64,000 bases of DNA from an uncultured Collinsella sp. (GTDB taxonomy: Bacteria; Actinomycetota; Coriobacteriia; Coriobacteriales; Coriobacteriaceae). A program made the translations under genes and the position numbers. Where the stretch lies: the NCBI GenBank assembly GCA_900541795.1, contig UQLC01000010.1, forward strand, positions 4,669-68,668. The letters are read 5' to 3'. Below are positions 29,153 through 49,591 of the stretch, in pieces; the stretch's first letter is position 1; every line of letters begins with the position of its first letter. Below the pieces are notes generated by a model. It was not told where the DNA came from. It saw only the letters and a program-made list of their open reading frames with translations, and did no database searches.

Positions 29153-29668
29153 CTAGTACTCCACTCCTTCCCTTGCACATATCCCCTGCTCGTAGGGGTG
29201 TTTCTCGCACCGCATCTCGGTTATGTAGTCGGCCTTCTCCACGATCTTGCGGGAAGGCGCGCGCCCGGTGAGTGCTACTTCGACGCCGCGCGCGGACATA
29301 TCGAGCGCGCGGTCCACGAGCGCCTCGTCGACAAGCCCCTTCGAAAGCGCATCGAGCGCCTCGTCGAGCACGAGCAGCCCCTCCTGCGCGCCCTCGAGCT
29401 CGGCAAGCGCGGAAGCGAGGTTCCCATCGTGCAGCTCGCACGTAGCGGCAAGTTCTTCCGACGACATCGACCAGGTAAACTTGTCCGACACCTTCCCCGC
29501 GAACACGGGCACGCCGAAATGCTCGGCGAGCAGGCGCGCCTCCCCGCTTTCGCCGTCTTTCAGGAACTGCACGACGACGACGCGGCGGCCTGCGGCGAGC
29601 ATGCGAAGGGCGAGGCCCATCGCCGCCGTGGTCTTGCCTTTGCCGTCGCCATGATACACGTGAATCAT
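29153..29668 (-). CDS. cobO: corrinoid adenosyltransferase (CobA/CobO/BtuR type)
   Basis: 171 aa from ATG 29668 (ATGA overlap with the cbiP stop, RBS gaggagggc). It has the P-loop-like GDGKGKTTAAMG motif. Confidence 0.9.
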   Translation of the reverse strand: MIHVYHGDGKGKTTAAMGLALRMLAAGRRVVVVQFLKDGESGEARLLAEHFGVPVFAGKVSDKFTWSMSSEELAATCELHDGNLASALAELEGAQEGLLVLDEALDALSKGLVDEALVDRALDMSARGVEVALTGRAPSRKIVEKADYITEMRCEKHPYEQGICAREGVEY

Positions 29669-35116: not shown

Positions 35117-35661
35117 CTTGTAGGTCCTTCGCCTTTCATCCACACGGGAATCCCGCATACCACTTCGACAGCGCAGTCGGCCAGCGCCGACACGCCCGCG
35201 TTCACGCGCGCGAGCGCGCGCCTCCATACCTCGGTCCCCTCATCGTAGCGCATCCCATCGGCGAACACGTCGACGGTGACAACCACCGTATACGCAGCGG
35301 CCTGAGCGAGCCGTTCGATGCCTCCGAGCACCTCGCGCGCCACAGCGTCGGGGTCGCGTGGGGACAAGCCGGCTTCCGCGAAAAGCTCGTTTGCAACCAG
35401 GTTGCCCACGTCCTCCAAAAGAAGCGTGCAGCCGCGCGGAAGCCCGGGCACTGCGGCGCCCACGTCACGCGTGCGCTCGAGGGTGGAAAACCCCTTGCCC
35501 TCGCGCAGCGCCCGATGGCGCGCGATGCGGCGGGCGCCCTCTTCCCCGAAGGGCTCCATCGTTGCCAGGTACACGCGAGGGCCGTCGTGCCCGAGGCACA
35601 AGGACTCGGCGTAGGCGCTCTTACCGCTCGCGGCGGCGCCGATAACGAACGTCACCGCCAT
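35113..35661 (-). CDS. cobU: adenosylcobinamide kinase / adenosylcobinamide-phosphate guanylyltransferase
   Basis: 182 aa, MAVTFVIGAAASGKS (intact P-loop), ...CGIPVWMKG. It overlaps the cobT 3' end by 10 nt. Confidence 0.9.
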   Translation of the reverse strand: MAVTFVIGAAASGKSAYAESLCLGHDGPRVYLATMEPFGEEGARRIARHRALREGKGFSTLERTRDVGAAVPGLPRGCTLLLEDVGNLVANELFAEAGLSPRDPDAVAREVLGGIERLAQAAAYTVVVTVDVFADGMRYDEGTEVWRRALARVNAGVSALADCAVEVVCGIPVWMKGEGPTR

Positions 35662-36800
35662 TTCCCGGCCTCGAAATGCTCGTAAGCAGCCATGCCAGTC
35701 GCCGTGAACGTCTTCCCATCCCGGTACACGCACAGCGCCGAATCCAGAAGGGGCAGATACGCCATGGCGCCCGCGCCCTCGCCCAAGTGCATGCCTGCGT
35801 CGAGGGGTGCCTTTATGCCGAGCTCGCGAAGGAGCTCCTGGCTTGCGGGTTCGCTTGATGCGTGGGTGCCCACGAGGTAGCCCAAGGCGTTGGGGCACAG
35901 GCGCGCCGCGCACAGAGCCGCCGTGCAGGATATGACCCCGTCGAGGAGTGCCGGCGCCTTCGAGGCCGCGGCCCCCAGGTAGAAGCCGCACATCGCCGCA
36001 ATGTCGAAGCCGCCCACCTTCGAGAGCACGTCGATCGGGTCGGCGGGATCGGGCGAGTTCGCGTCGATAGCGCGCTCGACCACGTCGCGCTTGCGCGCGA
36101 GCGAGGCGTCCGAGAGCCCCGCGCCGCGCCCGACGAGGCTCCGCGCGTCCGCCCGGATGAGCACTGCGGCCACCGCCGCCGAGGTGGTCGTGTTGCCGAT
36201 GCCCATCTCGCCCGCGGCGAGAAGGCGCACGCCGGCGCGGGCAAGCCCGCACGCGACGGCGATTCCGACCTCGATCGCGCGCACGGCCCCATCGCGAGAC
36301 ATAGCGGAGCCGTGCGCGATGTTGCCGCTCCCCCGCCGCACGTTCGCGCGCACCATGCGCGCGTCTTCTATGCCCCGGGCCATACCCACGTCGACGGGCA
36401 CGACCTCGGCACCCGCGAACGCCGCCATGCGGCAAGCGCTTGTGGCCCCCTCGCACATGTTGCGCGCGACGGCTCGCGTCACGTCTTGCCCGCTTTGCGA
36501 CACGCCTTCGGCAACGACCCCGTTGTCGGAGAAGAATACCGCGAGCGCACGGGGGAACTCGGCCACCTCGGCGCTCCCCTGAGCTGCGGCGATACACGCG
36601 ACGGCGTCTTCAAAGTCGCCCAATCCCCCCAAGGGGTGCGCGATGGAGTCCCACGCGGCGTACGCGGCGGCGCGGGCGCACTCGTCTGCGGGCGCGATCC
36701 GGGAGAGCGCGGCTTCGAGCACGGCGCCCGGCGCCGACGAGAACGCGCGCTCGACTTCCTCGCGGATGCAGGCAAGCGCGGTTTCGGTTGCCTCAGCCAT
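35652..36800 (-). CDS. cobT: nicotinate-nucleotide--dimethylbenzimidazole phosphoribosyltransferase
   Basis: 382 aa, AAGEMGIGNTTTSAAV, GGFDIAAMCG, HLGEGAGA. RBS gaggag lies upstream. Confidence 0.9.
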   Translation of the reverse strand: MAEATETALACIREEVERAFSSAPGAVLEAALSRIAPADECARAAAYAAWDSIAHPLGGLGDFEDAVACIAAAQGSAEVAEFPRALAVFFSDNGVVAEGVSQSGQDVTRAVARNMCEGATSACRMAAFAGAEVVPVDVGMARGIEDARMVRANVRRGSGNIAHGSAMSRDGAVRAIEVGIAVACGLARAGVRLLAAGEMGIGNTTTSAAVAAVLIRADARSLVGRGAGLSDASLARKRDVVERAIDANSPDPADPIDVLSKVGGFDIAAMCGFYLGAAASKAPALLDGVISCTAALCAARLCPNALGYLVGTHASSEPASQELLRELGIKAPLDAGMHLGEGAGAMAYLPLLDSALCVYRDGKTFTATGMAAYEHFEAGKWR

Positions 36801-38175
36801 GCCGTCTCCTCTCTGCGAACGACGCTGCGGCAGACGCGAACGCGCGCGCAACGTCGGGGTTCGCAGGATAGTACACATGCGGGAAGCCCGCAACCAGGGA
36901 CGGGGTAGTCGTCATGCACGGCCAGCCCTTGTCGCGCCGGGGCTTTTGCGCCCAAAAGTCGCCGCCCGGGCAGGTGGACTGCCAGTAGTGGAACTCGTGC
37001 GCGCGGATGCGTGTGCCGCGCGGCCCGTAGAGCCCGTCGCGTTGGGAAGTGAGCTCCACGTACCCGAAATGGGACAGCCTTCCCCCGTTCTCGCTTGCGC
37101 CCTCAAGGGCGCCCACAACAGGCCAGCGCCGCCCCTCGCTATCGGAGATTTCGCGCTGCAGGTACAGAAACCCACCGCATTCGGCAACCGTCGGCATGCC
37201 GGATTCCACCGCACGCCGCACCGCCTCGCGCATCGGCGCGTTCTCGGAGAGCTGCCGCACATGGAGCTCCGGGTAGCCGCCTCCCAGATAGAGGGCGCTT
37301 GCCCCCCGCGGCAACTCGCTATCACACAGGGGGCTGAAAAAGGCCAGCTCGCAACCCAGGTCCTCGAGCGCGCGCAGGTTCTCCTCGTAGTAGAACGAGA
37401 ACGCCTCGTCACGCGCGACGGCGACGATGGGCCGCGCTCCCGCGATCGGCTCCAACCGGTAAGGATCCTCGCGGATATCGGGTGCCGTCGCCGCTATTTC
37501 GAGCAAGCGGTCGACGTCGAAGCTCTTTTCCACCAGCTCGGCCATCTTGTCGATGCGCGCGGAGAGCTGCTCGACCTCGTCGGCGGTCACAAGCCCCAAA
37601 TGCCGGCTTTCGAGCGAGAACGCATCGTCGGCGGGGATATTCCCCAAAACCGCGACACCCGTGTGCTTCTCGATCGCAGGCTTCGCGTAGGCGCAGGCAG
37701 CGGCGCTCGTCTTGTTCAGCACGACGCCGCGCACGTTCGCACAAGGCAGGAACTCGGCGATGCCGCGGATTACGGCGGCGAGCGATAAAGACGCCCCGCG
37801 CCCGTTCACCACTAAAACGACCGGCGTTTCCGTGTCGCACGCAACCTGGTAGCTGCTCGCGTCGGCCACGCCGGGCGCCATGCCGTCGTAGAAGCCCATG
37901 GCCCCCTCGAGCACCGCGACATCCGCGCCCGCGGCGCCGCGTGCGAGCAGGGCGCGCAGCGTCGGGGCGTCGGTGAAGAAGCCGTCTAAGTTGCCCGAGC
38001 GCGCACCCACGACGCGGCGATGAAAGAGCGGGTCAATGTAGTCGGGGCCGCATTTGAAGGCCGCGCATGCGAGGCCGCGGCGCGCAAGCGCGCGCAGGAG
38101 CGCGCACGTAACGACCGTCTTGCCGCTCCCGCTCGAGGGCGCAGCGACCATGAAGCGAGGGATGGTCGTGCTCAC
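36793..38175 (-). CDS. cbiA: cobyrinate a,c-diamide synthase
   Basis: MVAAPSSGSGKTVVTCAL P-loop, and a C-terminal GATase domain (AECGGFLYL). GTG 38175 overlaps the cbiET stop (GTGA). Confidence 0.9.
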   Translation of the reverse strand: MSTTIPRFMVAAPSSGSGKTVVTCALLRALARRGLACAAFKCGPDYIDPLFHRRVVGARSGNLDGFFTDAPTLRALLARGAAGADVAVLEGAMGFYDGMAPGVADASSYQVACDTETPVVLVVNGRGASLSLAAVIRGIAEFLPCANVRGVVLNKTSAAACAYAKPAIEKHTGVAVLGNIPADDAFSLESRHLGLVTADEVEQLSARIDKMAELVEKSFDVDRLLEIAATAPDIREDPYRLEPIAGARPIVAVARDEAFSFYYEENLRALEDLGCELAFFSPLCDSELPRGASALYLGGGYPELHVRQLSENAPMREAVRRAVESGMPTVAECGGFLYLQREISDSEGRRWPVVGALEGASENGGRLSHFGYVELTSQRDGLYGPRGTRIRAHEFHYWQSTCPGGDFWAQKPRRDKGWPCMTTTPSLVAGFPHVYYPANPDVARAFASAAASFAERRRHG

Positions 38176-39521
38176 CGGGCGCCGCCTTCCCCACCTGCAC
38201 CACGCGCGCTGACGAGGAACACGGGGTTTTGCGCCTTCATAAGATGGTGCGAGCCTACAGCCTCGGCGCGGGCGGCCGACACCTGGCACGCCTCGAACCC
38301 CTTAAAGCGCGAACCCGAGAGGAGCGCGCACGCCTCGGAGAGCGTCTCAACGGTGACGCATGGCACGCACAGGCGAACCTGCGAGTTCTTCTCGAGCGCC
38401 GCCTCCACGATGGAGGGAAGCTCGCCCGCGCTCCCGCCGACGAACACGGCGTCGGGGACGGGCAGTTTCGTGAGCGCTTCGGGGGCGACACCGGGGACCG
38501 CATGCACGTTGCCGCACCCGAATGCATCCGCGTTCTCTCGGATGAGCCGCACGCCGGCCGCGTTGCGCTCGACCGCCCATACCGACCCCGTTCGCGCGAC
38601 GAGCGCCGCCTCGATCGACACGCTCCCCGTGCCGGCTCCGACGTCCCACACGGTGTCGGTCGCGGTAAGGCGCAGCTTCGCGAGCGCGACGGCGCGCACC
38701 TCCTGCTTGGTCATGGGAACGTCGCCGCGGATGAAGAGCTCGTCGGGAATGCCCGAGGAAGCGTACGGCCAGCGGGAGCTCGCGGCGCGTGATGCGCCCG
38801 CAGAGTCTGCCGCGAAAGAAGCCGCCGCGGGCGATGACGCGCCAGCCGGCGCCTCGGAGGCTGCGCTAGAGCCCGCAGGCGACCCGGCGCCGCCTGCGAA
38901 CTCGATAAGCATCACGTTCAAGTCGTCGAACGTCTGACCTGCGATTTCACTTGCGGTCGCGCAGGTGATGCGCTCGTCGGGGTACGACAGGCGCTCGGCC
39001 ACCGTCACGCGCGCGTCCCCGAAGCCCGCCTGCACAAGCTCGCCCGAAAGCCGCGAGGGGTCTTCCCCGCCCGACGTGGCGAGGAAGAGCTCGCCTGAGC
39101 GCTCGGCCTCGGCCACGATGTCGCACGCCACGCCGTGAGCGCTCGCAAAGCGCCAATCCTGCCATGGACGCGCGAGGCACGCGGCGAGATACGACGCTGA
39201 GCTTATGCCGGGAATGATACGCACGTCCACCTGCGCGTCGCCGGAGAGCGCCTCCACCAGGCGGCGCGCGCCGCTGAACAGCCCCACATCGCCCGTCATC
39301 AAGACCACGGCGCGCAGCCACGACGCCGCATCGGTGAGCGCGGCGACGATGTCCGCCGTCTTAACGAGCTCGCATCTCACCACGTCGGGCGGCACGTCGA
39401 TGCCGACGAGCGCGCGATGAGCGCCGATGACCACGTCGGCGATGTCGATCGCGTCAAGCGCCGCGCGCGAGAGCAAGTCGGGGTTTCCGGGCCCCGCCCC
39501 GATGATCGTTACCTTTCGCAT
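38172..39521 (-). CDS. cbiET: cobalt-precorrin-6B/7 methyltransferase-decarboxylase, CbiE-CbiT fusion
   Basis: The N-terminal tetrapyrrole methylase domain begins MRKVTIIGAGPGNPDLL. A Ser/Ala-rich linker follows. The C-terminal CbiT domain has VWDVGAGTGSVSIEAA. Confidence 0.9.
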   Translation of the reverse strand: MRKVTIIGAGPGNPDLLSRAALDAIDIADVVIGAHRALVGIDVPPDVVRCELVKTADIVAALTDAASWLRAVVLMTGDVGLFSGARRLVEALSGDAQVDVRIIPGISSASYLAACLARPWQDWRFASAHGVACDIVAEAERSGELFLATSGGEDPSRLSGELVQAGFGDARVTVAERLSYPDERITCATASEIAGQTFDDLNVMLIEFAGGAGSPAGSSAASEAPAGASSPAAASFAADSAGASRAASSRWPYASSGIPDELFIRGDVPMTKQEVRAVALAKLRLTATDTVWDVGAGTGSVSIEAALVARTGSVWAVERNAAGVRLIRENADAFGCGNVHAVPGVAPEALTKLPVPDAVFVGGSAGELPSIVEAALEKNSQVRLCVPCVTVETLSEACALLSGSRFKGFEACQVSAARAEAVGSHHLMKAQNPVFLVSARGAGGEGGAR

Positions 39522-40255
39522 GGAATCTCCCGATACCCGCGCGGCGTGACCATACGGCCGCCTACGCGCTTCGTGTCCGCGTTGCCGACGAACACGGTGG
39601 TGAACATGTCGGCGTCGATCTCCCCCAGCTCGGAGAGCCTGCACATGCCCGACTGCTGCCCCTCGCGCCCGATGTTGCGTACCCAACCGCAGAGCGTGTC
39701 GGGGGCCTTCCATTCGAGCATAATCTTCGCCGCGCGCGAGAGCCTGTCGGCGCGCTTTCTGCTGCGCGGGTTGTACAAACAGATGCAGAAGTCGGCGCTC
39801 GCCACGGCGGCGAGCCTGCGCTCGATGACCTTCCACGGCGTGAGAAGGTCGGAGAGCGACACGACCGCGAAGTCGTGGGCAAGTGGGGCGCCGAGCACCG
39901 CCGACCCGCTCTGGGCCGCGGTGGCCCCGGCGATAACTTCCACGTCTACATCGGGGTAGTCCTCCGCAAGCTCCAGCACGGGGCTCGCCATGCCGTACAC
40001 GCCCGCGTCACCGCTGCACACGAGCGCCACGGCTTCTCCGCTCTGCGCGCGTGAAAGCGCCAGGCGGCACCGTTCGACCTCGTGCATCATCGGCGTCGCG
40101 AGATGCGCCGCGTCGGGCACGGCGGCGAGCGCGAGCTCCACGTATTTCGTGTACCCCACAACGATGTCGGCGGCCTCGAGCGCGCGCCGGGCCGCAATCG
40201 TCATGCCGTCGGGGCCGCCCGGGCCGATCCCCACCACGAAGAGCTTTCCCATCAC
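39509..40255 (-). CDS. cbiH: cobalt-factor III / precorrin-3B C17-methyltransferase
   Basis: 248 aa, KLFVVGIGPGGPDGMT, SGDAGVYGMA, LYNPRS. Confidence 0.9.
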   Translation of the reverse strand: MMGKLFVVGIGPGGPDGMTIAARRALEAADIVVGYTKYVELALAAVPDAAHLATPMMHEVERCRLALSRAQSGEAVALVCSGDAGVYGMASPVLELAEDYPDVDVEVIAGATAAQSGSAVLGAPLAHDFAVVSLSDLLTPWKVIERRLAAVASADFCICLYNPRSRKRADRLSRAAKIMLEWKAPDTLCGWVRNIGREGQQSGMCRLSELGEIDADMFTTVFVGNADTKRVGGRMVTPRGYREIPCER

Positions 40256-41385
40256 CGCTCCTTAAACGAAAGTTCGATAGTTACCTTGGAAAACGCGACG
40301 GTCACGCCGCCGTGAGCGAGCTTCGGTAAGATAAGTTTGCCCCCGTCCGCGAGCGCCGCGCGCTCGCACACGTTGTCGACCCCCACAGTCGCGCGCACGA
40401 AATCAGATGGCGAAACGCTGCCTTCGACCTGCGACAACTCCTCTGCGGAATACGTCGCGAGCGGGATATTGCGCGCGCGGCAGAAGGCGAGCAAACCCTC
40501 CTCGTGCGCCTTCACGTCGATCGTCGCCGCCTCGCGCACGGCCGAAGGCGAGATGCCCGCCTGCCCGCACGCGAGAAGAAACGCTTCCCCGATCGCTTCG
40601 GCGCACGCACCGCGACGGCACCCTATGCCCGCAACGATGCAGGGCACAACAAGGCGAAGCGGCTCGGGCGCAGGCGCCTGCGCCCGCACGCCCGCCGGCT
40701 TCCCCGTCTCAGTGGTGGGAACGACCTCGCCCTTTGTCTCCGCCGCGCGAACGGTCGCACCTGCATTCGCGCCGGCGAACGGCGACACGACGATATCGGC
40801 CCGAGCGCGGTCGGACGCAATGTCAACCCCCTCAGGCGGCTGTCCCGAAATCGGCATGTCGGAATAGAGCGCCACGCGCCCGCCAGAAAGCAGCCGCGCC
40901 GACACTCGCTTGATGGCCTCGGGATTCGAAACGGCGAGCCCCGCACAGCGTGCCCACGTATCCACCGCCCACACGCCGCGGACGTCGGTCGCCGTGGTAA
41001 TGACGGGGATGGCCCCTGCCGCGCGTGCCACAGTTTGCGCAAGCTCGTTCGCACCGCCCAAATGCCCCGACAAAAGCGGGACGGCAAAGCGCCCCACCTC
41101 GTCGATCGCCACAACCGCGGGATCGTTTGCCTTCGAGGCGACATGCGGCGCGATCGCCCGCACGGCGATGCCCGCCGCGCCCACGAACAGAAGCGCGTCC
41201 GACGCTTCCCACGCGAGCGCCGTCCATGCGCGCAGGTCGGCCTTCCCCTCGCCGAACCCGCGCGAAACGGAAACGTCCCAGCCAGGGTCACCTTCACCTG
41301 ACTGCGCACAATCGGAAAGCGCGCGTGCGGTGCGCTCCGCCAACGCATACCCCCTCTCAGTGAACGCTATGCAGGAAACCCTCAT
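40252..41385 (-). CDS. cbiG: cobalt-precorrin-5A hydrolase
   Basis: 377 aa with CbiG N-terminal, middle and C-terminal segments: FVGAAGIAVRAIAPH, PLLSGHLGGANE, GIGCRRG, VDNVCERAAL. Confidence 0.85.
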   Translation of the reverse strand: MRVSCIAFTERGYALAERTARALSDCAQSGEGDPGWDVSVSRGFGEGKADLRAWTALAWEASDALLFVGAAGIAVRAIAPHVASKANDPAVVAIDEVGRFAVPLLSGHLGGANELAQTVARAAGAIPVITTATDVRGVWAVDTWARCAGLAVSNPEAIKRVSARLLSGGRVALYSDMPISGQPPEGVDIASDRARADIVVSPFAGANAGATVRAAETKGEVVPTTETGKPAGVRAQAPAPEPLRLVVPCIVAGIGCRRGACAEAIGEAFLLACGQAGISPSAVREAATIDVKAHEEGLLAFCRARNIPLATYSAEELSQVEGSVSPSDFVRATVGVDNVCERAALADGGKLILPKLAHGGVTVAFSKVTIELSFKER

Positions 41386-41619
41386 CTAGCGCACCACCAT
41401 CGTCGAGAAGTAGCTGCCCCGATCGGGCACATCGTCAAGCGAGCGGTACACGCGCTCGCCCGGAAGCCCACAGTCCTCTACAAGCTCGGCACCGTCGAAG
41501 GCGCCCTCCTCGCAAAGAAAGCGCTTCGTGTCCGCAAGCGAGCGGCGCGCCTTCATGACCACCTTCGTCCCCGGCCAGCCGATTGCGCGGCCCACCCCAT
41601 ACAGAACGCCTTTACTCAT
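41386..41619 (-). pseudogene. cbiL: remnant of the cobalt-factor II C20-methyltransferase gene (cbiL) with a large in-frame internal deletion
   Basis: 77 codons. MSKGVLYGVG... resembles a tetrapyrrole-methylase N-terminus. ...GLPGERVYRSLDDVPDRGSYFSTMVVR resembles the family's C-terminus. Only 227 nt separate cbiD from cbiG, so a full-length gene of about 230 aa cannot fit. Confidence 0.6.
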
Positions 41620-42796
41620 ACGTCGCCCCCAATTCCCCGATAACTGCATCGGCGCCCGACGTGCGGAAAATCTCGCGGCGCTCGGCGTCGAACACGACCG
41701 CGGCGATGTCGCATGCGCCCGCCGCGCGGCGGCGCAACCTGTCCTCGATTGCCGCAGCGAGCGAGGCGCGCGCAGCGTCCCCCACGCCGGCGGCCTCGAT
41801 TACCTCGAGCGCCGCCGTGGTCGTGACCGACGACATGATCTCGCGCACGGTCTTCGCGCCCGCGCCAGCCAAGGCCGCGTGAGCGGCCAGAATCTCCGCG
41901 CGGCAGTCGGCGGTACGCGAATGGGTGTCCATGATGCCGCCAGCGACCTTCACCAGCTTGCCGATGTGTCCCACAAGAAGGACATTGGTGAATCCCTCGC
42001 GAACGCAGCAATCAATCGCATCGCCCACAAAGTTGGAGATGAAGACCACCGGCGCACCGTTTAGGTGGAAATGCCCCGAGATGAACTGCCCGCCGTAGTT
42101 GCCGGGCGTGAGCACGACTCCGCGCCGCCCCATAGCCGCATGCTGCCGGATCTCGAGCTCGATGCTGTCGCGCAAGGCAGCGAGGCTGCGCGGCTCGACG
42201 ATGCCCGTCGTGCCCAGGATGGAGATGCCGCCCTCTATCCCCAGGTGCGGGTTGAAGGTCTTTTCGGCAAGGGCCACACCCTCGGGTACCGAAATCGTCA
42301 CAGCAATATTTCCAGAAAAGCCGTGCGCGGCGCACACCTCACGCACCGCCGAAGTAATCATCGCGCGCGGCGTCGCGTTGATGGCGGCCGCCCCCACCGG
42401 CTGCTCGAGCCCGGGCAACGTCACGCGCCCCACGCCCACGCCGCCATCGACAGAAACTTCCGATTCGTGCGCGGGCACGTCCTTGCTGCCCGCAGTACCC
42501 GTGCCCGACCCCGCATGTTCCACGCGCGCGTACACGAGCACGCCGTCGGTCACATCGGCATCGTCGCCTGCGTCCTTTCGCACGGCGCACTGGGCGCACC
42601 CCTCGCCGATGCATGCGTCGACCACGTTCGCCTCGACGGGCAGCCCGCCGGGGGTGACGATCGACACGCGGCCGACGGGCTTTCGTGACAAGAGCATCTC
42701 GCAGGCCGCCTTCGCCGCGAGCGCGGCACAGCTCCCCGTGGTGTAGCCACAGCGCAGGCGGGTCGTCCCGGTATATATGTAGTGCTCGAAGGCCAC
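41612..42796 (-). CDS. cbiD: cobalt-precorrin-5B (C1)-methyltransferase
   Basis: 394 aa from GTG 42796, LRCGYTTGSCAAL, GGVGVGRVT, GIEGGISILGTTGIVEP. Confidence 0.9.
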   Translation of the reverse strand: MAFEHYIYTGTTRLRCGYTTGSCAALAAKAACEMLLSRKPVGRVSIVTPGGLPVEANVVDACIGEGCAQCAVRKDAGDDADVTDGVLVYARVEHAGSGTGTAGSKDVPAHESEVSVDGGVGVGRVTLPGLEQPVGAAAINATPRAMITSAVREVCAAHGFSGNIAVTISVPEGVALAEKTFNPHLGIEGGISILGTTGIVEPRSLAALRDSIELEIRQHAAMGRRGVVLTPGNYGGQFISGHFHLNGAPVVFISNFVGDAIDCCVREGFTNVLLVGHIGKLVKVAGGIMDTHSRTADCRAEILAAHAALAGAGAKTVREIMSSVTTTAALEVIEAAGVGDAARASLAAAIEDRLRRRAAGACDIAAVVFDAERREIFRTSGADAVIGELGATYE

Positions 42797-42797
42797 G

Positions 42798-43589
42798 CTA
42801 GCTGCTCGCCTTCCGATACCCCGTGGCAAACGAAGGGTCGTAAAGCTTGCTACGCTCGTACGACTCCGCTTGCGCGCCGTCGTACGCAAGTCCGCCGCGA
42901 GCTCCGAGCACGCGGCCCACCACCACGAGCGCCGTGCGGTCGATGCCCTCTCGCGCGCCCGCATCGGCGAGCGTGCCCACTGTGCAGCGCACCACGCGCT
43001 CCTCAGGCCAGGTCGCCTTGTACACGAGCGCCGCCGGCTCATCGGAGCTGCGGCCCGCGGCCAAAAGCTCGGCGGAAAGCTCGGCGAGCATACCCGAGCT
43101 CAGGAAGATGACCATAGTCGAGCCGCTTTCCGCCATGGCGCGCATGCCCTCGCCCGCGGGCATGGGGGTGCGTCCGGAAAGCCGCGTGATTACGACCGAC
43201 TGGCTGATTCCCGGCAGCGTGTATTCCTGGCGAAGCGCCGCCGCGGCACCGCAAAAGCTCGACACGCCGGGCACCACCTCGTAGTCCACGCCGCGCGCGT
43301 CGAGCGCGTCCATCTGCTCCTGGATGGCGCCGTACAGGCACGGGTCGCCCGTGTGCAGGCGCACCACTTCCTCGCCCCGCGCATCTGCCGCGCACATCAC
43401 GTCGAGCACTTCCTCCAAGGTCATGTGCGCGCTGTCGTAGACGACGCAGGATTCCTTGCACTCGGCGAGCAGCTCGGGGTTCACAAGGCTCCCCGCCCAA
43501 ACGACCACGTCGGCCGCGCGCAGAAGGCGCGCCCCGCGCAGCGTGATAAGGTCGGCGGCGCCCGAGCCAGCGCCAACGATATGAATCAT
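42798..43589 (-). CDS. cbiF: cobalt-precorrin-4 C11-methyltransferase
   Basis: 263 aa from ATG 43589, MIHIVGAGSGAADLITLRG, LHTGDPCLYGA, VPGVSSF. This is the first gene of the minus-strand operon. Confidence 0.9.
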   Translation of the reverse strand: MIHIVGAGSGAADLITLRGARLLRAADVVVWAGSLVNPELLAECKESCVVYDSAHMTLEEVLDVMCAADARGEEVVRLHTGDPCLYGAIQEQMDALDARGVDYEVVPGVSSFCGAAAALRQEYTLPGISQSVVITRLSGRTPMPAGEGMRAMAESGSTMVIFLSSGMLAELSAELLAAGRSSDEPAALVYKATWPEERVVRCTVGTLADAGAREGIDRTALVVVGRVLGARGGLAYDGAQAESYERSKLYDPSFATGYRKASS

Positions 43590-43819
43590 CCGAGCCTTCC
43601 CTTCCCGTTTCTCATCGCAACCGTTGACGCCGCCATTCGCGCAGCGGACAAAACACGGCGCCTGCGGCGGCAATCGGCGCAAATACGCAGGCAGGAGGCG
43701 CAATGCCGCCCGCCCTGGCTTTGACACGTTCACAAGTGCCCACTATCATAGTAAAAGTTTCGGCAACGAGCATATGACAATCGGATAAAAGGAAATGACC
43801 GGCGCGGCGCCCGCACAGC

Positions 43820-43930
43820 CCGCGCTGGCTTGCGGAGGGAACCAGGTGGGAATCCTGGGCAAGGGACATTACTGTGTAGGACGCGCAGGCGAACCGCCTC
43901 GCGCCCCAAGCCAGACTGCTTCGCCTTTTC
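43820..43930 (+). promoter_or_regulatory. candidate cobalamin riboswitch upstream of the cbiK / corrinoid-uptake operon
   Basis: gAGGGAAccaGGTGggAATCCtggGCaagggacattACTGTgtagg ... ccAAGCCAGActGC. This matches the conserved AGGGAA / GGTG.(A)AATCC..GC / ACTGT / B12-box-like AGCCAG blocks in the right order. ctggcttg (43825-43832) can pair with caagccag (43907-43914). The B12 box is shorter than the consensus. Confidence 0.55.
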
Positions 43931-44047
43931 CTCACGGCATCGCCGTGGCGTTAGCTCCTTGTGAACCCCGAGGGGCGCGCTTTTCTTTCGCTTGTGCCGA
44001 CAAGCAACTGTCGCCGGGGGACCGGCAAACCGAGGAAAGGAAAAACC

Positions 44048-44974
44048 ATGTCCGACCAGATGTCACGCCGCGGCTTCATGGGCGCCGCAGCAACCGGAGC
44101 ATTCGCGCTCGCCGGAGTCGCGCTCGCGGGCTGCTCCAGCACCTCCGCGAGTTCCGAGAAATCGAGTGAAAAGGAGAAGGCCGTGAAGCCGGTCATCCTC
44201 GTCACGAGCTTCGGCACGAGCTACAACGACTCGCGCCACATCACCATCGGCGCCATCGAAGACGCTATCCGCGAGAAGTACTGGCAGGACTACGACATCC
44301 GCCGCGCCTTCACCGCGCAGATCATCATCGACAAGCTGAAGAAGCGCGACGGCATCACGATCGACAATATGACCGAGGCGCTCGACCGCTGCGTGGAAGA
44401 CGGCGTGAAGGAAATTGTCGTGCAGCCGACGCATCTCATGGCTGGCCTGGAATACGCCGACGTGAAAGACGAGCTCGACAAGTACGCCGACAAGTTCGAC
44501 AAGATCTCGCTCGGCGACCCGCTGCTCACCTCCGACGACGACTACAAGAAGGTGGCCGCAGCCATTAATGAGAACATGGCGTCCTTCGACGACGGCAAGA
44601 CGGCGCTGTGCCTCATGGGCCACGGCACCGAAGCCGATTCCAACGCCGACTATGCCAAGATGCAGGAAGTGTTCCAGAACGAGGGCTTGACGCAGTTCTT
44701 CGTCGGCACCGTCGAGGCTGAGCCGACCTGCGAGGATGTTATCGCCGCCGCGAGCGCCGCAGGGTACAAGAAGGCCGTGCTCGCGCCGTTCATGGTGGTC
44801 GCGGGCGACCACGCGAACAACGACATGGCAGACGAGACCGACCCCGACAGCTGGGCTGCGAAGTTCGTGGCCGCTGGCTTCGAAGTGACGTGCCTGCTCC
44901 AGGGTCTGGGACAGAACGCCGCGGTCGACGACATCTACGTCTCGCACGTGGACGACGCCATCGCCAAGCTGTAA
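44048..44974 (+). CDS. cbiK: sirohydrochlorin cobaltochelatase CbiK homolog carrying a Tat signal and lipobox (predicted exported lipoprotein)
   Basis: MSDQMSRRGFMGAAATGAFALAGVALAGCSS contains a twin-arginine motif and the lipobox LAGC. The full CbiK fold follows: VTSFGTSY, RRAFT, LMGHGTE, PFMVVAGDHANNDMA, DSWAAKF, GLGQN. RBS aggaaagga lies upstream. Confidence 0.85.
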   Translation: MSDQMSRRGFMGAAATGAFALAGVALAGCSSTSASSEKSSEKEKAVKPVILVTSFGTSYNDSRHITIGAIEDAIREKYWQDYDIRRAFTAQIIIDKLKKRDGITIDNMTEALDRCVEDGVKEIVVQPTHLMAGLEYADVKDELDKYADKFDKISLGDPLLTSDDDYKKVAAAINENMASFDDGKTALCLMGHGTEADSNADYAKMQEVFQNEGLTQFFVGTVEAEPTCEDVIAAASAAGYKKAVLAPFMVVAGDHANNDMADETDPDSWAAKFVAAGFEVTCLLQGLGQNAAVDDIYVSHVDDAIAKL

Positions 44975-44983
44975 ACTCGCCGC

Positions 44984-45054
44984 GCACGGGGGCGCCGGTC
45001 GCGTCCCCGTGCAACGGGCATGCGCCTTCCCCGACCGACGGCGCATGCCCGTTG
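44984..45054 (+). other. two adjacent GC-rich hairpins between cbiK and the next gene
   Basis: gcacgggg...ccccgtgc (44984-45012) and caacgggcatgcgcc / 13-nt loop / ggcgcatgcccgttg (45012-45054, 15-bp stem). There is no T-run. Confidence 0.3.
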
Positions 45055-45119
45055 CATTCGCATCCCGCCCGCCCACCGCACGGCGCGGGCGGTCGAAGCG
45101 ATTGAAAGGAACCCCCTCC

Positions 45120-45653
45120 ATGTTGAAGAAAACCCTCGCCTTCGCCCTGTCAGCGGCGCTTTTTGCGTTCTCGCTCGCCGGCTGCGGCGGAAATTCAATC
45201 GACAGCGCAAAGGCAAGCGATGCCGATTCCCAGGAAAAGACCGAACAGGCGGCCGATGCGCCCGAGGGCGCAAGCGCTGCCCCCATCACCGCCGACAAGG
45301 TGGCCGACGGCACCTATCCGATCACCGTAGATTCCAGCTCGAACATGTTCAGGATTGTGGACGCCCAGCTCATCGTGGAAAACGGCTCCATGCACTGCGT
45401 GATGACACTTTCCGGCACGGGCTACGGCAAGCTCTTCATGGGCACGGGTGACGAGGCTGCCACCGCGAGCGAGGCCGACTTCATCCCCTATGTGGAAAAC
45501 GCGGAAGGCAAGTACACCTACGACGTGCCCGTTGAAGCGCTCGACGAGGACACCGCCTGCGCCGCGTGGAGTATTAGAAAAGAGCAGTGGTACGACCGCA
45601 CGCTCGTGTTCGAATCCGCCGGCGTCGATCTGCGCGCCGACGCACTGAAGTAA
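45120..45653 (+). CDS. lipoprotein of unknown function (candidate extracellular ligand-capture protein)
   Basis: MLKKTLAFALSAALFAFSLAGCGG is a signal peptide with a lipobox. The mature part of about 150 aa looks beta-rich and contains YPITVDSSSNMFRIVDAQLIVENGSMHCVMTLSG. Confidence 0.7.
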   Translation: MLKKTLAFALSAALFAFSLAGCGGNSIDSAKASDADSQEKTEQAADAPEGASAAPITADKVADGTYPITVDSSSNMFRIVDAQLIVENGSMHCVMTLSGTGYGKLFMGTGDEAATASEADFIPYVENAEGKYTYDVPVEALDEDTACAAWSIRKEQWYDRTLVFESAGVDLRADALK

Positions 45654-45657
45654 CGCC

Positions 45658-47229
45658 ATGCGGTCGATTCTTCCCAAGGGGGAAAACAGGAAGCGCCACA
45701 GCATCGCGGCGCGCGCGATTGTCTGCGTTCTCGTCGCCCTGCTCGCGCTTCCTTTCGCGGGGTGCAGTGCGAGCCCGAACGCGACCGGTGGCACGGCGGG
45801 CTCTCAGGAATACACTGTGAGCGTCTCGCTTTCCGGTGGGTCAGGGCGTGCAAGCATCGCCTCGCCCACCACAATTGTGAAGGATGGCGACACCTACACC
45901 GCGACCATCACCTGGTCGAGTTCGAACTACGACAAGATGACCGTCGACGGCGTGGACTACGCGCCCGTAAACGACGGCGGCAACTCCACGTTCGAGATAC
46001 CCGTCACGCTCGACGAGGACATCGCCGTGTCGGCCGAGACCGTCGCCATGTCGACGCCGCACACCATAGACTACACGCTCTACTTCGACTCATCCACCAT
46101 GAAGGAGAAATCGGGCGACGAAGCAAGCGGCGGCTCCCCTGCGAGAACGGCTTCAAGCGCCGCGGCCGACTTCCACAACGCCGATTTGGGCTGCGGCTGG
46201 AAGCCGACGGGGACGCTTCAGCTTGAATACGCCGAGCACTTCACTGTCGACGAGTTCGAAGGCGGCTTGCGGCTTATCTGCGTTTCGAACGGTGAGCGCT
46301 TCCTCGTGGTACCGCAAGATGCGAAGGTACCTGATGGGTTGAGCTCTGACATCGCGGTCATAAGGCGCCCCGCCGACAAGGTGTACCTCGTGTCGTCGGC
46401 AACGATGTGCCTGGTCGACGCGCTCGATGCGAACGACAATATCTTCATGTCGGGCACGAAGGCCGACGATTGCTCGGTCGCGGGCTTCAAAAGCGCACTC
46501 GAAAGTGGGGCGATCGCCTACGGCGGCAAGTACAGCGCGCCCGACTACGAGCGAATATCGGCCTCGGGCTGCACGCTCGCCATCGAGAACACCATGATCA
46601 ACCACACACCCGATGTGAAGGAAAAGCTGCAGAAACTCGGGCTCGTCGTGCTCACCGAACAGTCGTCGAGCGAGCCCGAAGCACTCGGGCGCCTCGAGTG
46701 GATTAAGCTTTTCGGCGTCCTGTTCGACAAGGAAGACGAGGCCGCGCACCTGTTCAACGAGCAAAAGGCCCGCGTCGAGCAAACGTCGAGGCTCGCGTCG
46801 TCAGGTAAAACCGTGGCGTATTTCTACATTAACTCGAACGGGGCCGCCGTCACGCGGCGGGCGGGCGACTACGTGGCGCAGATGATCGAGCTTGCAGGCG
46901 GCAACTACGCGCTCGATGACGCGCAGACGGCGTCGACGTCAGGTTCGTCAGTAACGCTCGAAATGGAGCGCTTCTACGCGACGGCGAAGGATGCCGACAT
47001 CATCGTCTACAACGGCACCATCGACGAATCGGTTGCCACCTTAAACGACTTCGTAGGCAAAAACGCGCTATTGTCGCAGTTCAAAGCCGTGAAGAACGGC
47101 AACGTCTGGGTCACAAGCGCCGACATGTACCAGCAGATGACTTCTACCGCCGACATTATCGACGAGCTGCACGGGGCGTTCACCGGCGATGACGCGAGCG
47201 ACTTCCATTATCTGAGGAAGCTTGGCTAG
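45658..47229 (+). CDS. lipoprotein: N-terminal extra domain of about 130 aa fused to a cluster-A (FecB/BtuF-type) ABC substrate-binding domain
   Basis: Signal and lipobox LALPFAGCS. The N-domain reads EYTVSVSLSGGSGRASIASPTTIVKDGDTYTATITWSS.... The rest resembles an iron-siderophore/B12 periplasmic binding protein (ADKVYLVSSATMCL..., DADIIVYNG..., VWVTS). Confidence 0.85.
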   Translation: MRSILPKGENRKRHSIAARAIVCVLVALLALPFAGCSASPNATGGTAGSQEYTVSVSLSGGSGRASIASPTTIVKDGDTYTATITWSSSNYDKMTVDGVDYAPVNDGGNSTFEIPVTLDEDIAVSAETVAMSTPHTIDYTLYFDSSTMKEKSGDEASGGSPARTASSAAADFHNADLGCGWKPTGTLQLEYAEHFTVDEFEGGLRLICVSNGERFLVVPQDAKVPDGLSSDIAVIRRPADKVYLVSSATMCLVDALDANDNIFMSGTKADDCSVAGFKSALESGAIAYGGKYSAPDYERISASGCTLAIENTMINHTPDVKEKLQKLGLVVLTEQSSSEPEALGRLEWIKLFGVLFDKEDEAAHLFNEQKARVEQTSRLASSGKTVAYFYINSNGAAVTRRAGDYVAQMIELAGGNYALDDAQTASTSGSSVTLEMERFYATAKDADIIVYNGTIDESVATLNDFVGKNALLSQFKAVKNGNVWVTSADMYQQMTSTADIIDELHGAFTGDDASDFHYLRKLG

Positions 47230-48274
47230 CGTCATGAGAAGCCGGCTTTCCATGACATACGACGAATCGGGGCGCGCCGCGCGGTGTCGCGTCGTGACGG
47301 CGCTGCTCGCTGTTGTCCTCATCGTGCTCGTCGGGGCCAACCTGTGCATCGGGAGCGTGCTCGTGCCCGCAGACCACATCCCCGGAATCCTTTCGGGCGG
47401 CGCGGCCAATTCCATGGAAAGCCAAGTCATCTGGGAGATTCGCCTGCCGCGCGTGCTTTCAGCCGTGCTTCTCGGCGGGGCACTTTCGCTCTCCGGGTTC
47501 CTGCTGCAGACGTTTTTCAACAACCCCATCGCCGACCCGTTCATCTTGGGCGTCTCCTCGGGCGCAAAGTTCGTCGTCGCGCTTACGATGATCGTGCTTC
47601 TGGGCGCGAACCAGGCCATGTCCTCGCCGGCCATGGTGGCCGCAGCGTTTCTGGGATCGCTTATCACCATCGGCTTCGTGCTCCTCATCGCACGGCGCAT
47701 AAGTTCCATGGCCATGCTCATCGTGGCGGGCGTCATGGTGGGATACATCTGCTCGGCGGCGACGAACTTTCTCATCGCTTTCGCCGACGACCAGTCCATC
47801 GTGAACCTGCACAACTGGTCTTTGGGTAGCTTCTCGGGTTCGAGCTGGGACGACATCGCGGTCATCGTGGTCGTGGTGATCACCGTGAGCGCATGCGTAT
47901 TCGCGATATCGAAGCCCCTTTCCGCCTTCCAGCTGGGAGAAGCCTACGCGAAAAGCGTCGGCGTGAACGTCGCACGCTTCCGCGTGGTGCTCGTCCTTCT
48001 AGCGAGCATGCTCTCCGCTTGCGTGACCGCGTTCTCTGGTCCGGTGTCGTTCGTAGGCATCGCGGTTCCGCATCTCGTGAAGTCGGCGCTGAAGTCGTCG
48101 AAGCCCATCCGCGTGATTCCTGCGTGCTTCTTGGGAGGCGCCATCTTCTGCGCGGGTTGCGATTTGATCGCGCGCACGCTGTTCTCTCCCGTCGAGCTTT
48201 CCATCAGCGCCGTCACCGCCATCTTCGGCGCGCCGGTGGTTATCGCGCTCATGCTGAAGAAGCGGGTGAGGTAG
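47222..48274 (+). CDS. ABC permease, FecCD/BtuC family
   Basis: 350 aa with about 9-10 TM segments, IWEIRLPRVL, FVGIAVPHL. Confidence 0.9.
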   Translation: MASVMRSRLSMTYDESGRAARCRVVTALLAVVLIVLVGANLCIGSVLVPADHIPGILSGGAANSMESQVIWEIRLPRVLSAVLLGGALSLSGFLLQTFFNNPIADPFILGVSSGAKFVVALTMIVLLGANQAMSSPAMVAAAFLGSLITIGFVLLIARRISSMAMLIVAGVMVGYICSAATNFLIAFADDQSIVNLHNWSLGSFSGSSWDDIAVIVVVVITVSACVFAISKPLSAFQLGEAYAKSVGVNVARFRVVLVLLASMLSACVTAFSGPVSFVGIAVPHLVKSALKSSKPIRVIPACFLGGAIFCAGCDLIARTLFSPVELSISAVTAIFGAPVVIALMLKKRVR

Positions 48275-49591
48275 ATGGGGGAATTCGTGCCGCGGCCCAA
48301 AACGCTCGGAGGGGACATTCCATGCTTAGACAGTCCTGAGCTCGCACGAAAGCGTCAGAAGACACTTTCGGCTCGTGCGGAACTGCGCGCGGAACGCCTC
48401 CTTCGAGCGGAGTCGAACCTCGAAACCCCGGTCGAAACGCAGGCTGACGGAGCGCCGCTTTTCCGCATAAGCGACCTGTCGGCGGGCTACGACAAGAAGG
48501 TCGTAGTCGAAGGCGTCGATCTGGAGGTTCGCGCGGGCGACGTCGTGGCGCTCATCGGGCCGAACGGCTCGGGCAAGTCGACCATCTTGAAAACCATCAC
48601 ACGCCATCTGGCACCGCTTGCCGGCGCGGTCGAGCTCGACGGGCGGGAGATTTCCCGATGGAAGACGGCGGAGTTCGCAAGGAACCTTGCCGTTATGCTG
48701 ACAGATCGCCCCCGGACCGAGCTCCTCACCTGCCGCGATATCGTAGAGGCGGGAAGGCATCCCTACACCGGGCGAATGGGCACACTCTCGCCCGACGACC
48801 ATAGTCGGGTCGACGAGGCCATGAAAACCGCACATGTGGAAGAGCTCGCCGAGCGCGACTTCATGCAGATAAGCGACGGGCAACGCCAGCGCGTCATGCT
48901 CGCACGCGCCATCGCGCAGGATCCGCGCGTGCTCGTGCTCGACGAGCCCACGTCGTATCTCGATATCCGCTACCAGATCGACCTGCTGCGAATACTTCGC
49001 CACCTTGCGAAATCGCGAAATGTGGCTATCATCATGTCCATCCACGAACTCGAGCTCGCGCAGAAAAGCGCCGACAAGGTGATTTGCGTGAAGGACGGCC
49101 GGGTCTTCCGCGCCGGCGCACCCGAGGACATATTCACGCGCGAGACGATTGGCGAGCTCTACGGCCTTAAACATGGCACCTTCAACGAGCGCTTCGGCAG
49201 CGTGGAAATTGGGCGCCCACACGGCGATGCGCACACGTTCGTCATCGCCGGCGCAGGTACGGGGTCAGCTGTGTTTCGCCAGCTCATCCGGCAGGGCAAA
49301 GCGTTCTACGCGGGCGTTCTGCACGAAGGAGACATCGACTGCGAGCTCGCGCGCGACCTGGCGGCGGAATGCGTGGCCGAGCGCGCCTTCGAGACGATCG
49401 GAGATAAAACCATAGCCCGCGCCATAGAGCTCCTCATCCACTGCGCGCGCCTTATCGTGTGCCCCGCTGCCTTCGGCACCTTAAACGCCCGCAACGCAGA
49501 GCTCGTCGAGTTCGCACACTCGCATGGTATCGAGGTCATGCAAGCGTGCGAAGGCGCATCGGAGGATTCCCATTTGGAGTGGGAAGAATAA
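48275..49591 (+). CDS. ABC ATP-binding protein (FepC/BtuD type) with a 65-aa N-terminal extension and an extra C-terminal domain of about 140 aa
   Basis: Walker A GPNGSGKST, signature ISDGQRQRVMLARA, Walker B VLVLDEPTSYLD. The sequence then continues ...TFVIAGAGTGSAVFRQLIRQGKAFYAGVLHEGDIDCELA..., which is not part of a canonical NBD. The ATG directly follows the permease stop. Confidence 0.85.
   Translation: MGEFVPRPKTLGGDIPCLDSPELARKRQKTLSARAELRAERLLRAESNLETPVETQADGAPLFRISDLSAGYDKKVVVEGVDLEVRAGDVVALIGPNGSGKSTILKTITRHLAPLAGAVELDGREISRWKTAEFARNLAVMLTDRPRTELLTCRDIVEAGRHPYTGRMGTLSPDDHSRVDEAMKTAHVEELAERDFMQISDGQRQRVMLARAIAQDPRVLVLDEPTSYLDIRYQIDLLRILRHLAKSRNVAIIMSIHELELAQKSADKVICVKDGRVFRAGAPEDIFTRETIGELYGLKHGTFNERFGSVEIGRPHGDAHTFVIAGAGTGSAVFRQLIRQGKAFYAGVLHEGDIDCELARDLAAECVAERAFETIGDKTIARAIELLIHCARLIVCPAAFGTLNARNAELVEFAHSHGIEVMQACEGASEDSHLEWEE

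Follow-up and report, generated by a model that had tools for sequence, protein, structure and literature searches.

A predicted surface-anchored CbiK-like lipoprotein heads a candidate cobalamin riboswitch-controlled uptake module beside an incomplete cobamide operon in Collinsella

In Salmonella enterica, the chelatase CbiK (1qgo) is cytoplasmic; its gene lies within the cbi operon, and its substrate is endogenous sirohydrochlorin. Exported proteins of the same family are known from Desulfovibrio and Porphyromonas. The Desulfovibrio vulgaris paralog CbiK(P) (2xvx) is a soluble periplasmic protein that binds haem; its host reportedly possesses the complete pathway with a cytoplasmic CbiK as well. 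A single B12 element in Desulfovibrio controls cbiK-cbiL together with btuCDF (PMC545781). In Porphyromonas gingivalis, the ihtABCDE system includes IhtB/FetB (9b86), an outer-membrane lipoprotein that binds haem (PMC12094164), and FetB was recently described as having cobalt and manganese chelatase activity in vitro, binding porphyrins, lacking dechelatase activity on haemin and acting on extracellular porphyrin in vivo, with a role in Mn-protoporphyrin formation (2026, PMC13065792). P. gingivalis keeps cbi genes without precorrin-2 synthesis, according to Roper (2000) as summarized in a citing paper. Here we describe a cbiK-like gene from an uncultured Collinsella species, located at positions 44048 to 44974 (plus strand) of a 64-kb stretch of contig UQLC01000010.1; this whole analysed stretch is referred to as the window. 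The gene encodes a predicted exported lipoprotein of 308 aa with the class II chelatase fold, as identified by Pfam, NCBIfam and PDB matches, and it heads a co-oriented five-gene module that continues with two further lipoproteins, a permease and an ATPase. In the reading that we prefer, and to which we give about an even chance of being right, the CbiK-like protein would be anchored by lipid outside the cell and serve as the tetrapyrrole receptor with which a cobalamin-repressed relay into a BtuCD-like importer begins.

Judged by its predicted proteins, the Collinsella system is a Gram-positive variant of the exported-CbiK theme known from Porphyromonas and Desulfovibrio. The original prediction had named CbiK(P) as a precedent but had missed both the closest one, IhtB/FetB, and the NEAT-fold partners described below. 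With IhtB/FetB the Collinsella protein shares the CbiK fold, both catalytic histidines, a location as a lipoprotein outside the cytoplasm, and the place of first soluble component in an operon that also encodes a binding protein along with the permease (FecCD type) and ATPase of an importer; both hosts, moreover, keep cbi genes although precorrin-2 would be beyond their synthesis. It differs in that IhtB/FetB is placed, together with a TonB-dependent receptor, in the outer membrane of a Gram-negative, carries a Sec-type signal instead of the twin-arginine translocation (Tat)-type signal found here, and has been studied as a haem, iron and Mn-porphyrin protein and not as a corrinoid protein; the reviews consulted report neither NEAT-fold partners nor a cobalamin riboswitch for it. 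CbiK(P) is likewise an exported CbiK paralog but is not a lipoprotein, and no NEAT partners have been described for it. The S. enterica enzyme shares the fold and the equivalents of His145 and His207, whereas the Collinsella protein is predicted to be exported and to have no endogenous substrate. The Isd relay, in which IsdA, IsdB, IsdC, IsdH and IsdX1 stand ahead of IsdE and IsdF, is similar in placing surface NEAT domains ahead of a Peripla_BP_2/FecCD importer; however, it uses sortase anchoring and Fur control where the Collinsella module has lipoboxes and a putative cobalamin riboswitch, it is not headed by a CbiK-fold protein, and the similarity of the Collinsella domains to the Pfam NEAT model is sub-threshold. 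Finally, the Bacteroides proteins BtuG, BtuH and BtuJ are also surface lipoproteins of riboswitch-controlled B12 loci that capture corrinoids ahead of a transporter, but their folds are unrelated (beta-propeller, DUF4465) and their partner, in a Gram-negative envelope, is the TonB-dependent BtuB. Our literature search for CbiK with NEAT domains, or for NEAT domains with a cobalamin riboswitch, returned no relevant paper. The elements that would be new in Collinsella are the Tat-lipoprotein anchoring, the NEAT-fold partners, the cross-phylum riboswitch control and the link to a cobamide pathway without its head.

The assignment of the 308-aa product to the CbiK family was clear. Pfam CbiK (PF06180) matched residues 50-305 with 265.3 bits (gathering score 26.2), and the hallmark motifs SFGTSY, MGHG and VAGDHANNDMA were all found. 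The two segments with the catalytic histidine pair, LMGHGT and VAGDHANNDMA, aligned column for column with 1qgo, 9b86 and 2xvx and contain the equivalents of the S. enterica metal-binding residues His145 (in MGHG) and His207 (in AGDHA). The nearest PDB sequence match was S. enterica CbiK 1qgo (152.9 bits, residues 47-305), and further matches were the haem-binding FetB 9b86 (133 bits) and the periplasmic D. vulgaris CbiK 2xvx (117 bits). The NCBIfam equivalog model for sirohydrochlorin cobaltochelatase (NF047852) gave 226.5 bits, well below its cut-off of 400. The assembly, which belongs to the C. aerofaciens group (2.14 Mb, 99.9% complete; labelled G000 in coordinates), holds a single CbiK/CbiX locus by six-frame profile searches, and the same searches of the whole genome gave no match to CobN or ferrochelatase. 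A second chelatase elsewhere in the genome was thus ruled out, and the earlier statement that no cytoplasmic chelatase occurs among the genes of the window holds and extends to the genome. For population analysis we used 80 loci at 98-100% protein identity, all titled Collinsella or Coriobacteriaceae except one Ellagibacter and one 'uncultured bacterium'; this near-identical set is unsuited to distant gene context, which was drawn instead from the encoding contigs and genomes of more remote relatives. Within Collinsella, the ratio of nonsynonymous to synonymous substitution rates (dN/dS) was 0.09-0.12 in the cbiK-like gene, compared with 0.15-0.31 in the other genes of the module. A divergent CbiK-like open reading frame was also seen in a Collinsella genome without a cbi island (G014:C30:17409-18173; locus L131 7410-8105, minus strand), with 118.6 bits in a 437-aa open frame and 30% identity to the window protein.

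The N-terminus of the protein was read, from its sequence and its orthologs, as a Tat-type lipoprotein signal peptide (44048 to 44134, plus strand). This region, MSDQMSRRGFMGAAATGAFALAGVALAGC-SSTSASSEKSSEKEK, contains the twin-arginine motif SRRGFMG at residues 6-12, an Ala/Gly-rich hydrophobic segment or h-region (AAATGAFALAGVA) and the lipobox LAGC at residues 26-29 with Cys29, followed by a Ser/Glu/Lys-rich, low-complexity linker (SSTSASSEKSSEKEK) that is typical of Gram-positive lipoproteins, and it agrees with the Tat-lipoprotein consensus (S/T-R-R-x-F-L-K, an h-region and a lipobox L-[AS]-[GA]-C). Every Collinsella-type lipoprotein ortholog that was read (64-98% identity) has the arginine pair and the lipobox cysteine, with variable residues between them; MSDQMSRR...AGC was retained in 80/80 Collinsella loci, and the arginine pair was invariant in the Coriobacteriia orthologs read. 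Two other Coriobacteriales genera (G050 and G059) have the Tat motif with a signal-peptidase-I site (AQA and AYA, respectively) replacing the lipobox. The Pfam model TAT_signal (PF10518) gave no match on the N-terminus, where the sole Pfam match was PF10399 (E 0.25); PF10518 weakly matches the ortholog P0113 (E 0.044). TatC (PF00902, 182.9 bits) is encoded at G000:C32:10701-11324. The twin-arginine motif and lipobox of the original prediction were in this way corroborated by the sequence itself, by orthologs and by TatC, and the CbiK-like protein is, as far as sequence can show, exported and lipid-anchored at the cell surface.

A translational start downstream of the signal, which had been raised as a way in which the export reading could fail, is countered by a ribosome-binding site (GAGGAAAGGA) at the ATG that is conserved in the upstream leader alignment, although a GTG at codon 46 (44183) is kept as a minor rival. 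The protein could then act in the cytoplasm, either as a short isoform from this GTG or as a folded Tat substrate before export, as Tat substrates fold prior to export. A start at codon 46 has AAGGAG ahead of it, and the resulting N-terminus, MKPVILVTSFGTSY, would be canonical for CbiK; within Collinsella the GTG is present in 77/80 loci and AAGGAG, six bases upstream, in 74/80. On the other hand, AAGGAG doubles as the coding sequence of the conserved EKEK linker, most orthologs beyond the C. aerofaciens group have Ala, Thr, Pro or Arg at this codon (as does one same-genus locus, with Ala), and no cytoplasmic substrate would be available, given that HemC, uroporphyrinogen-III methyltransferase (SUMT) and SirC are absent, as set out below. 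Dual isoforms through the internal GTG were set aside since this codon is conserved only in the C. aerofaciens group and missing from most other orthologs, and cytoplasmic action by either route we consider quite improbable.

The genetic context of the cbiK-like gene was examined next for its likely regulation. The leader ahead of the five co-oriented genes is about 300 nt long and contains a sigma-70-like promoter (TTGACA, 17-nt spacer, TATCAT) at 43721 to 43749 (plus strand), recognized by consensus match alone (11/12) and the sole such site in 43550-45700. It is followed by a candidate cobalamin riboswitch aptamer of a divergent, short-P6 form (43788 to 43935, plus strand), identified by relaxed Rfam search, core pattern and homologous aptamers. 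At gathering threshold Rfam reported no riboswitch in the window; at relaxed threshold RF00174 gave 15.4 bits (E 0.13, 43788-43915), below the gathering score of 31.5, and we attribute this low score to an inserted GC hairpin that displaces the B12 box AAGCCAGACUGCUUCGCC, which cmscan left unaligned. A pattern of the aptamer core (GGGAA..GGUG..A.UCC...GC) plus the B12 box (AGCCAG..GC..GCC) was found a single time in the window (43837-43925) and in 0/100 shuffles, and the core and B12-box columns were invariant across seven aligned leaders. Homologous leader aptamers scored 31.0 bits in another Collinsella species (L025), 27.6 bits in C. tanakaei (L120) and 19.7 bits before the G050 module, and on two Firmicute contigs (L122 and L121), where a tandem-CbiK lipoprotein heads the module, the preceding aptamers reached 102.8 and 77.9 bits, respectively. 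In every lineage whose complete upstream region was searched, a cobalamin riboswitch precedes the module, with scores ranging from 15.4 to 103 bits. Control of the uptake operon by a cobalamin riboswitch is therefore accepted from the pattern and the homologous aptamers and not from the Rfam score in this genome, and as a prediction it is well supported by comparison; the riboswitch of the original prediction stands on its core pattern and homologs, while its Rfam score in this genome does not reach the threshold. A terminator-like hairpin with a T-run (43954 to 43990, plus strand; an 8-pair stem, then GCGCTTTTCT) is the probable expression platform, its presumed function being read from its form, and its TGTGAACCCCGAGG block was invariant in the seven aligned leaders.

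The only other cobalamin-riboswitch-like element in the genome (G000:C6:99557-99726, plus strand; locus L127 1057-6071) scored 12.4 bits, also sub-threshold, which suggests that the Rfam model underscores Collinsella aptamers. Behind it lies a gene for a surface protein of 1313 aa, which combines four DUF4430 domains with a Flg_new repeat and a beta-propeller, and after that a gene for a DUF4430 protein of 303 aa. DUF4430 we take to be a transcobalamin-like, B12-binding family, and by its gene content this set looks like a second B12-regulated surface capture system.

Downstream of the cbiK-like gene, the co-orientation with lipoprotein, binding protein, permease and ATPase genes, and not with the biosynthetic operon, was found as predicted. 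The intergenic region before the second gene contains a hairpin with 20-nt arms (45010 to 45056, plus strand; an inverted repeat that is 95% complementary, with a 7-nt loop) and no T-run behind it, which may be a partial terminator or an RNA stabiliser and could set differential expression within the operon. The second gene (45120 to 45653, plus strand) encodes a Sec-type lipoprotein of 177 aa, with the N-terminus MLKKTLAFALSAALFAFSLAGC, that by modelling consists of one NEAT-fold domain, which we call domain A. The AlphaFold2 model, built on a 28-sequence alignment, had a mean pLDDT (predicted local distance difference test) score of 80.2 with a core above 95. Foldseek comparison with the PDB returned NEAT domains for all of the top 25 matches, among them IsdX1, Hbp2, IsdA, IsdH, IsdB and Shp, at probability >=0.97 (1.00 for the first 19) and with a target TM-score of up to 0.64. 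At the sequence level Pfam NEAT (PF05031) gave 13.7 bits, below its cut-off of 32.8, and no Pfam family scored above threshold; the haem-ligating YxxxY motif was not found in domain A, whose invariant residues are W157-Y158-D159-R160 and three methionines. The predicted structure thus gives domain A the NEAT beta-sandwich fold. The third gene (45658 to 47229, plus strand) encodes a substrate-binding lipoprotein of 523 aa with the lipobox FAGC, in which Peripla_BP_2 (113.5 bits) covers only residues 245-488 and is preceded by an N-terminal NEAT-like domain B. Domains A and B were homologous by hhalign (probability 98.3%, E 1.2e-14), and they recur in several fusions: A and B in one Firmicute lipoprotein of ~290 aa, CbiK with a C-terminal domain A in P0113 and P0260, and B with the binding protein here.

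The binding protein had as its sole PDB sequence match, a weak one, the vitamin B12-binding protein 5ysc (E 0.0013) and also weakly matched IsdE in NCBIfam. The permease (47222 to 48274, plus strand) is a BtuC-like member of the FecCD family (Pfam FecCD, 272 bits), whose best NCBIfam match was BtuC at 210.3 bits against a cut-off of 334. The ATP-binding cassette (ABC) transporter ATPase (48275 to 49591, plus strand; ABC_tran, 108.7 bits) had its highest NCBIfam score, 248.5 bits, with the model 'corrinoid ABC transporter ATPase', whose cut-off is 537. Because these best matches fall below the equivalog cut-offs, the importer is described as BtuFCD-like and not as a proven BtuFCD member. The ATPase also has an N-terminal extension of ~60 aa and an extra C-terminal domain, which in orthologs (L122, L123, L124) is MJ0874 (PF27219); such additions are unusual for BtuD/FepC-type ATPases.

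These partners raise the question of haem. Acquisition of haem or iron, as proposed for IhtB, would mean that haem is captured by the CbiK-like protein together with the NEAT domains and that haem or the released metal enters through the ABC transporter. The NEAT-fold partners, the weak IsdE match and the haem binding of FetB and CbiK(P) speak for it, and in the Firmicute locus L122 a gene for a DtxR/IdeR-type iron-dependent repressor (7737-8108) lies 1.3 kb upstream of the tandem-CbiK module, the only hint of an iron link. Against it stand the cobalamin riboswitches that precede the module wherever a full upstream region was searched, the position of the module in or beside cobamide genes in Coriobacteriia, and the lack of dechelatase activity of FetB on haemin (PMC13065792); no iron-regulator site turned up either, though no search aimed at one was made. 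We hold a haem or iron role for this module to be very improbable.

On the opposite strand lies the divergent cobamide operon (27741 to 43589, minus strand), with the order cbiF-D-(L remnant)-G-H-ET-A, cobT-U-S-C, cbiB, cobD, cbiP, cobA/btuR, cbiC and cbiJ. By Pfam and NCBIfam assignments it comprises 16 intact genes and a cbiL remnant, so that the seventeen biosynthetic genes counted earlier reduce to sixteen, and no chelatase, SUMT or SirC was found among them. The remnant (41386 to 41619, minus strand; TIGR01467) has 77 codons after an in-frame internal deletion of about 152 codons; the TIGR01467 match is limited to model positions 162-229, and the N-terminal MSKGVLYGVG and the C-terminal YFSTMVV are kept. 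The same remnant was found in 49 of 68 classifiable Collinsella loci, with cbiL intact in 18. The gene-loss survey covered 37 Collinsella genomes, including this one, and 24 genera of Coriobacteriales. HemC was absent from 37/37 of the Collinsella genomes, and SUMT was absent from this genome and the 36 others; phmmer searches with the HemC and SirC domains of fusion proteins gave no credible match. A hidden SUMT or CbiL was also looked for and rejected: TIGR01467 and TIGR01469 yielded nothing over their cut-offs, and PF00590 returned CbiF, CbiH, CbiE and one methylase on contig C5, which is probably the unrelated RsmI.

Because sirohydrochlorin cannot be made in the absence of HemC, SUMT and SirC and with cbiL reduced to a remnant, the CbiK-like protein would not be a de novo chelatase. 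The apparent paradox of a sole chelatase outside the cell is largely resolved, as there would be no cytoplasmic sirohydrochlorin to chelate; the proposed extracellular role on tetrapyrroles, by contrast, remains the reading most consistent with the comparative data, and only the paradox attached to it was overstated.

The remaining ring genes show no sign of following cbiL. They were full length in the 63-73 Collinsella loci readable per gene (80 fetched), except for two slightly shorter CbiF matches, and over 63-80 readable loci no frameshift or stop was found in 11 genes, the exceptions being three matches shorter than 95%. In the cbiL-deleted group, pairwise dN/dS was 0.13 for CbiF, 0.13 for CbiH, 0.23 for CbiD, 0.19 for CbiA and 0.42 for CbiG, values that match those of the cbiL-intact group at dS about 0.05, though within-group dN/dS may reflect more than post-deletion evolution given possible recombination between strains. 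Since the ring genes are intact and under purifying selection without cbiL, an imported substrate probably enters the retained pathway. Methylation at C20 is chemically required before ring contraction, which makes the identity of the imported compound puzzling. The island could instead be a decaying relic, its cbiK-like gene and neighbours without function, as the cbiL deletion, the missing precursor pathway and the absence of the island from about half of Collinsella species might suggest. The open reading frames without frameshifts or stops, the dN/dS of the cbiK-like gene, the conserved signal peptide and the conservation of the module across phyla all run counter to this; purifying selection already disfavours it, and we find it hardly credible. 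Elsewhere in the genome, a metal transporter of the energy-coupling factor CbiM (fused to PDGLE)-CbiQ-CbiO type, for cobalt or nickel, is encoded at G000:C5:86087-88803 (locus L118 6087-8803, minus strand). Regulation of this CbiMNQO-type transporter by B12 was rejected, as no riboswitch lies upstream.

We then asked how the exported CbiK-like protein is distributed among relatives. A HMMER search against 1.84 billion cluster representatives gave 3333 matches. The nearest 145 representatives (50% clusters) were sorted, leaving aside the window's own cluster. In at least 62 the CbiK domain begins beyond residue 30 behind a signal peptide, and a lipobox occurs in 29 of these; 33 are plainly cytoplasmic and 50 unclear. 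Of the 62 exported representatives, 51 contain GHG and likewise 51 contain G[DE]H. The exported proteins reach 1520 aa, with tandem CbiK, choline-binding repeats, CWB2, Ig or NEAT-like domains, and the Firmicute homologs have Sec lipoprotein signals or cell-wall anchors (choline-binding repeats, CWB2, Ig). With at least 62 of 145 representatives bearing signal peptides, exported CbiK constitutes a large and mostly unstudied Gram-positive group and is not rare, beyond the few Gram-negative cases named in the original prediction. The arrangement of an exported CbiK with a FecCD-type importer was conserved across phyla in L120, L122, L123, L124 and L128, so that signal-peptide-bearing CbiK beside btuFCD-like genes was also observed in relatives.

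In Coriobacteriia the module is embedded in, or adjoins, cobamide genes. In G050 a single co-directional array follows the riboswitch, in the order CbiK(Tat), NEAT A, NEAT B, substrate-binding protein, BtuC, BtuD, CbiD, CbiF, CbiG, CbiH and then CbiET and CbiA, with no cbiL; in the Firmicute locus L121 the tandem-CbiK lipoprotein gene lies directly upstream of cbiA. Ten of the genomes from the 24 Coriobacteriales genera were HemC-positive, all of them also SUMT-positive, and CbiK was cytoplasmic in 4/4 of these genomes in which the N-terminus was read (G043, G046, G051, G054). Three genera without HemC and SUMT, namely Collinsella, G050 and G059, have a Tat-exported CbiK. In the genome G039, a cytoplasmic CbiK occurs with CbiL, yet neither HemC nor SUMT is present. 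Export thus goes with loss of HemC and SUMT in Coriobacteriales, clear in direction but drawn from a small sample in which kinship is ignored.

These linkages bear on whether the surface protein might be an enzyme. As an extracellular chelatase, CbiK would insert Co2+ into a scavenged metal-free intermediate (factor II/III), and after ABC import CbiH-F-G-D-J-ET-C-A and the late enzymes would finish the molecule; class II chelatases need no ATP. The retained catalytic histidine pair, with GHG and G[DE]H in most exported representatives, is consistent with this, as are the full-length ring genes under constraint even where cbiL is deleted, and the linkage of module and ring genes in the G050 array and at cbiA of L121; linkage and conservation are better explained by catalysis than by the receptor reading. 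The exported homolog FetB, moreover, is active on cobalt and manganese in vitro (PMC13065792), and Rodionov (2019, PMC6593275) suggested precorrin-2 auxotrophy for C. aerofaciens, which needs B12 in defined medium despite 'complete' B12 genes. That same need for B12 nevertheless counts against a chelatase role. So does the lack of cbiL here and in G050, where cobalt-factor II would be unprocessable and only factor III or later intermediates usable; in addition, G059 has an exported CbiK yet no ring genes, and the CbiMNQO-type transporter would make cobalt available in the cytoplasm. Extracellular cobalt insertion is in our view possible but doubtful. An anaerobic cobamide pathway that is 'headless' and supplied from outside, with cobalt insertion by surface CbiK, a NEAT relay and ABC import all preceding completion of the ring by CbiH to CbiA, is as a whole rather unlikely; its input may be factor II in cbiL+ strains and factor III or later in cbiL- strains.

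In the receptor reading that we prefer, the Tat pathway would export the folded CbiK-like protein, which its lipid anchor would keep attached to the outside of the Collinsella membrane. Under a shortage of adenosylcobalamin, the riboswitch of the leader would allow transcription past the terminator hairpin. The lipoprotein would bind a tetrapyrrole (corrinoids, incomplete corrinoids) in its inter-domain cleft through the conserved histidine pair, and the ligand would pass, as in the Isd haem relay, over the two NEAT-fold domains, first that of the free lipoprotein and then that at the N-terminus of the binding protein, before the Peripla_BP_2 domain delivers it to the BtuCD-like importer. The imported compound would feed the retained cobamide pathway, so that the cell could finish cobamides that it cannot start. 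The ligand, the order of hand-off, and the choice between binding only and cobalt insertion are parts of this scheme that we infer. Several points weigh against the scheme: the sub-threshold RF00174 score of the aptamer; the fact that corrinoid binding is not known for any NEAT domain; and the NEAT folds, the weak IsdE match and the haem-binding precedents, which fit haem equally well. A pure binding role would also leave unexplained both the linkage of the module to ring-contraction genes and the purifying selection on ring genes in strains without HemC, SUMT and cbiL, and simple B12 capture may already be covered, since a second riboswitch-linked surface set with DUF4430 is present.

The locus also matters for how genomes are read. 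Genome-based predictions of B12 producers count any CbiK match as the pathway chelatase; because CbiK is predicted to be exported and the precursor pathway is absent, such calls would be wrong for Collinsella, and they are probably also wrong for many Firmicutes with signal-peptide CbiK. With its exported CbiK, NEAT-fold domains and type II importer under a putative cobalamin riboswitch, the module is a candidate Gram-positive counterpart of the BtuG/BtuH capture of Bacteroides, conserved in two phyla, and our search found no paper describing it. With ring genes under selection in the absence of HemC, SUMT and even cbiL, it becomes directly testable in a culturable gut commensal why cbi genes persist in precorrin-2 auxotrophs, a long-standing question that was first posed for P. 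gingivalis. External feeding of such a pathway, if true, would be a new class of corrin-intermediate salvage and would explain the P. gingivalis 'enigma' of cbi genes without precorrin-2.

Two further observations were made on relatives. The representatives P0303, P0388, P0270, P0353 and P0372 include CbiK fusions of other kinds, namely HemC-CbiK, SirC-like dehydrogenase-CbiK and ABC-ATPase-CbiK. In a related member of the Coriobacteriia (L124 15540-20930), the uptake module lies between the cbi operon and a PocR/AraC regulator gene with genes for a bacterial microcompartment shell and a B12-dependent diol dehydratase; by this position, supply and use of the cofactor are clustered at one locus.

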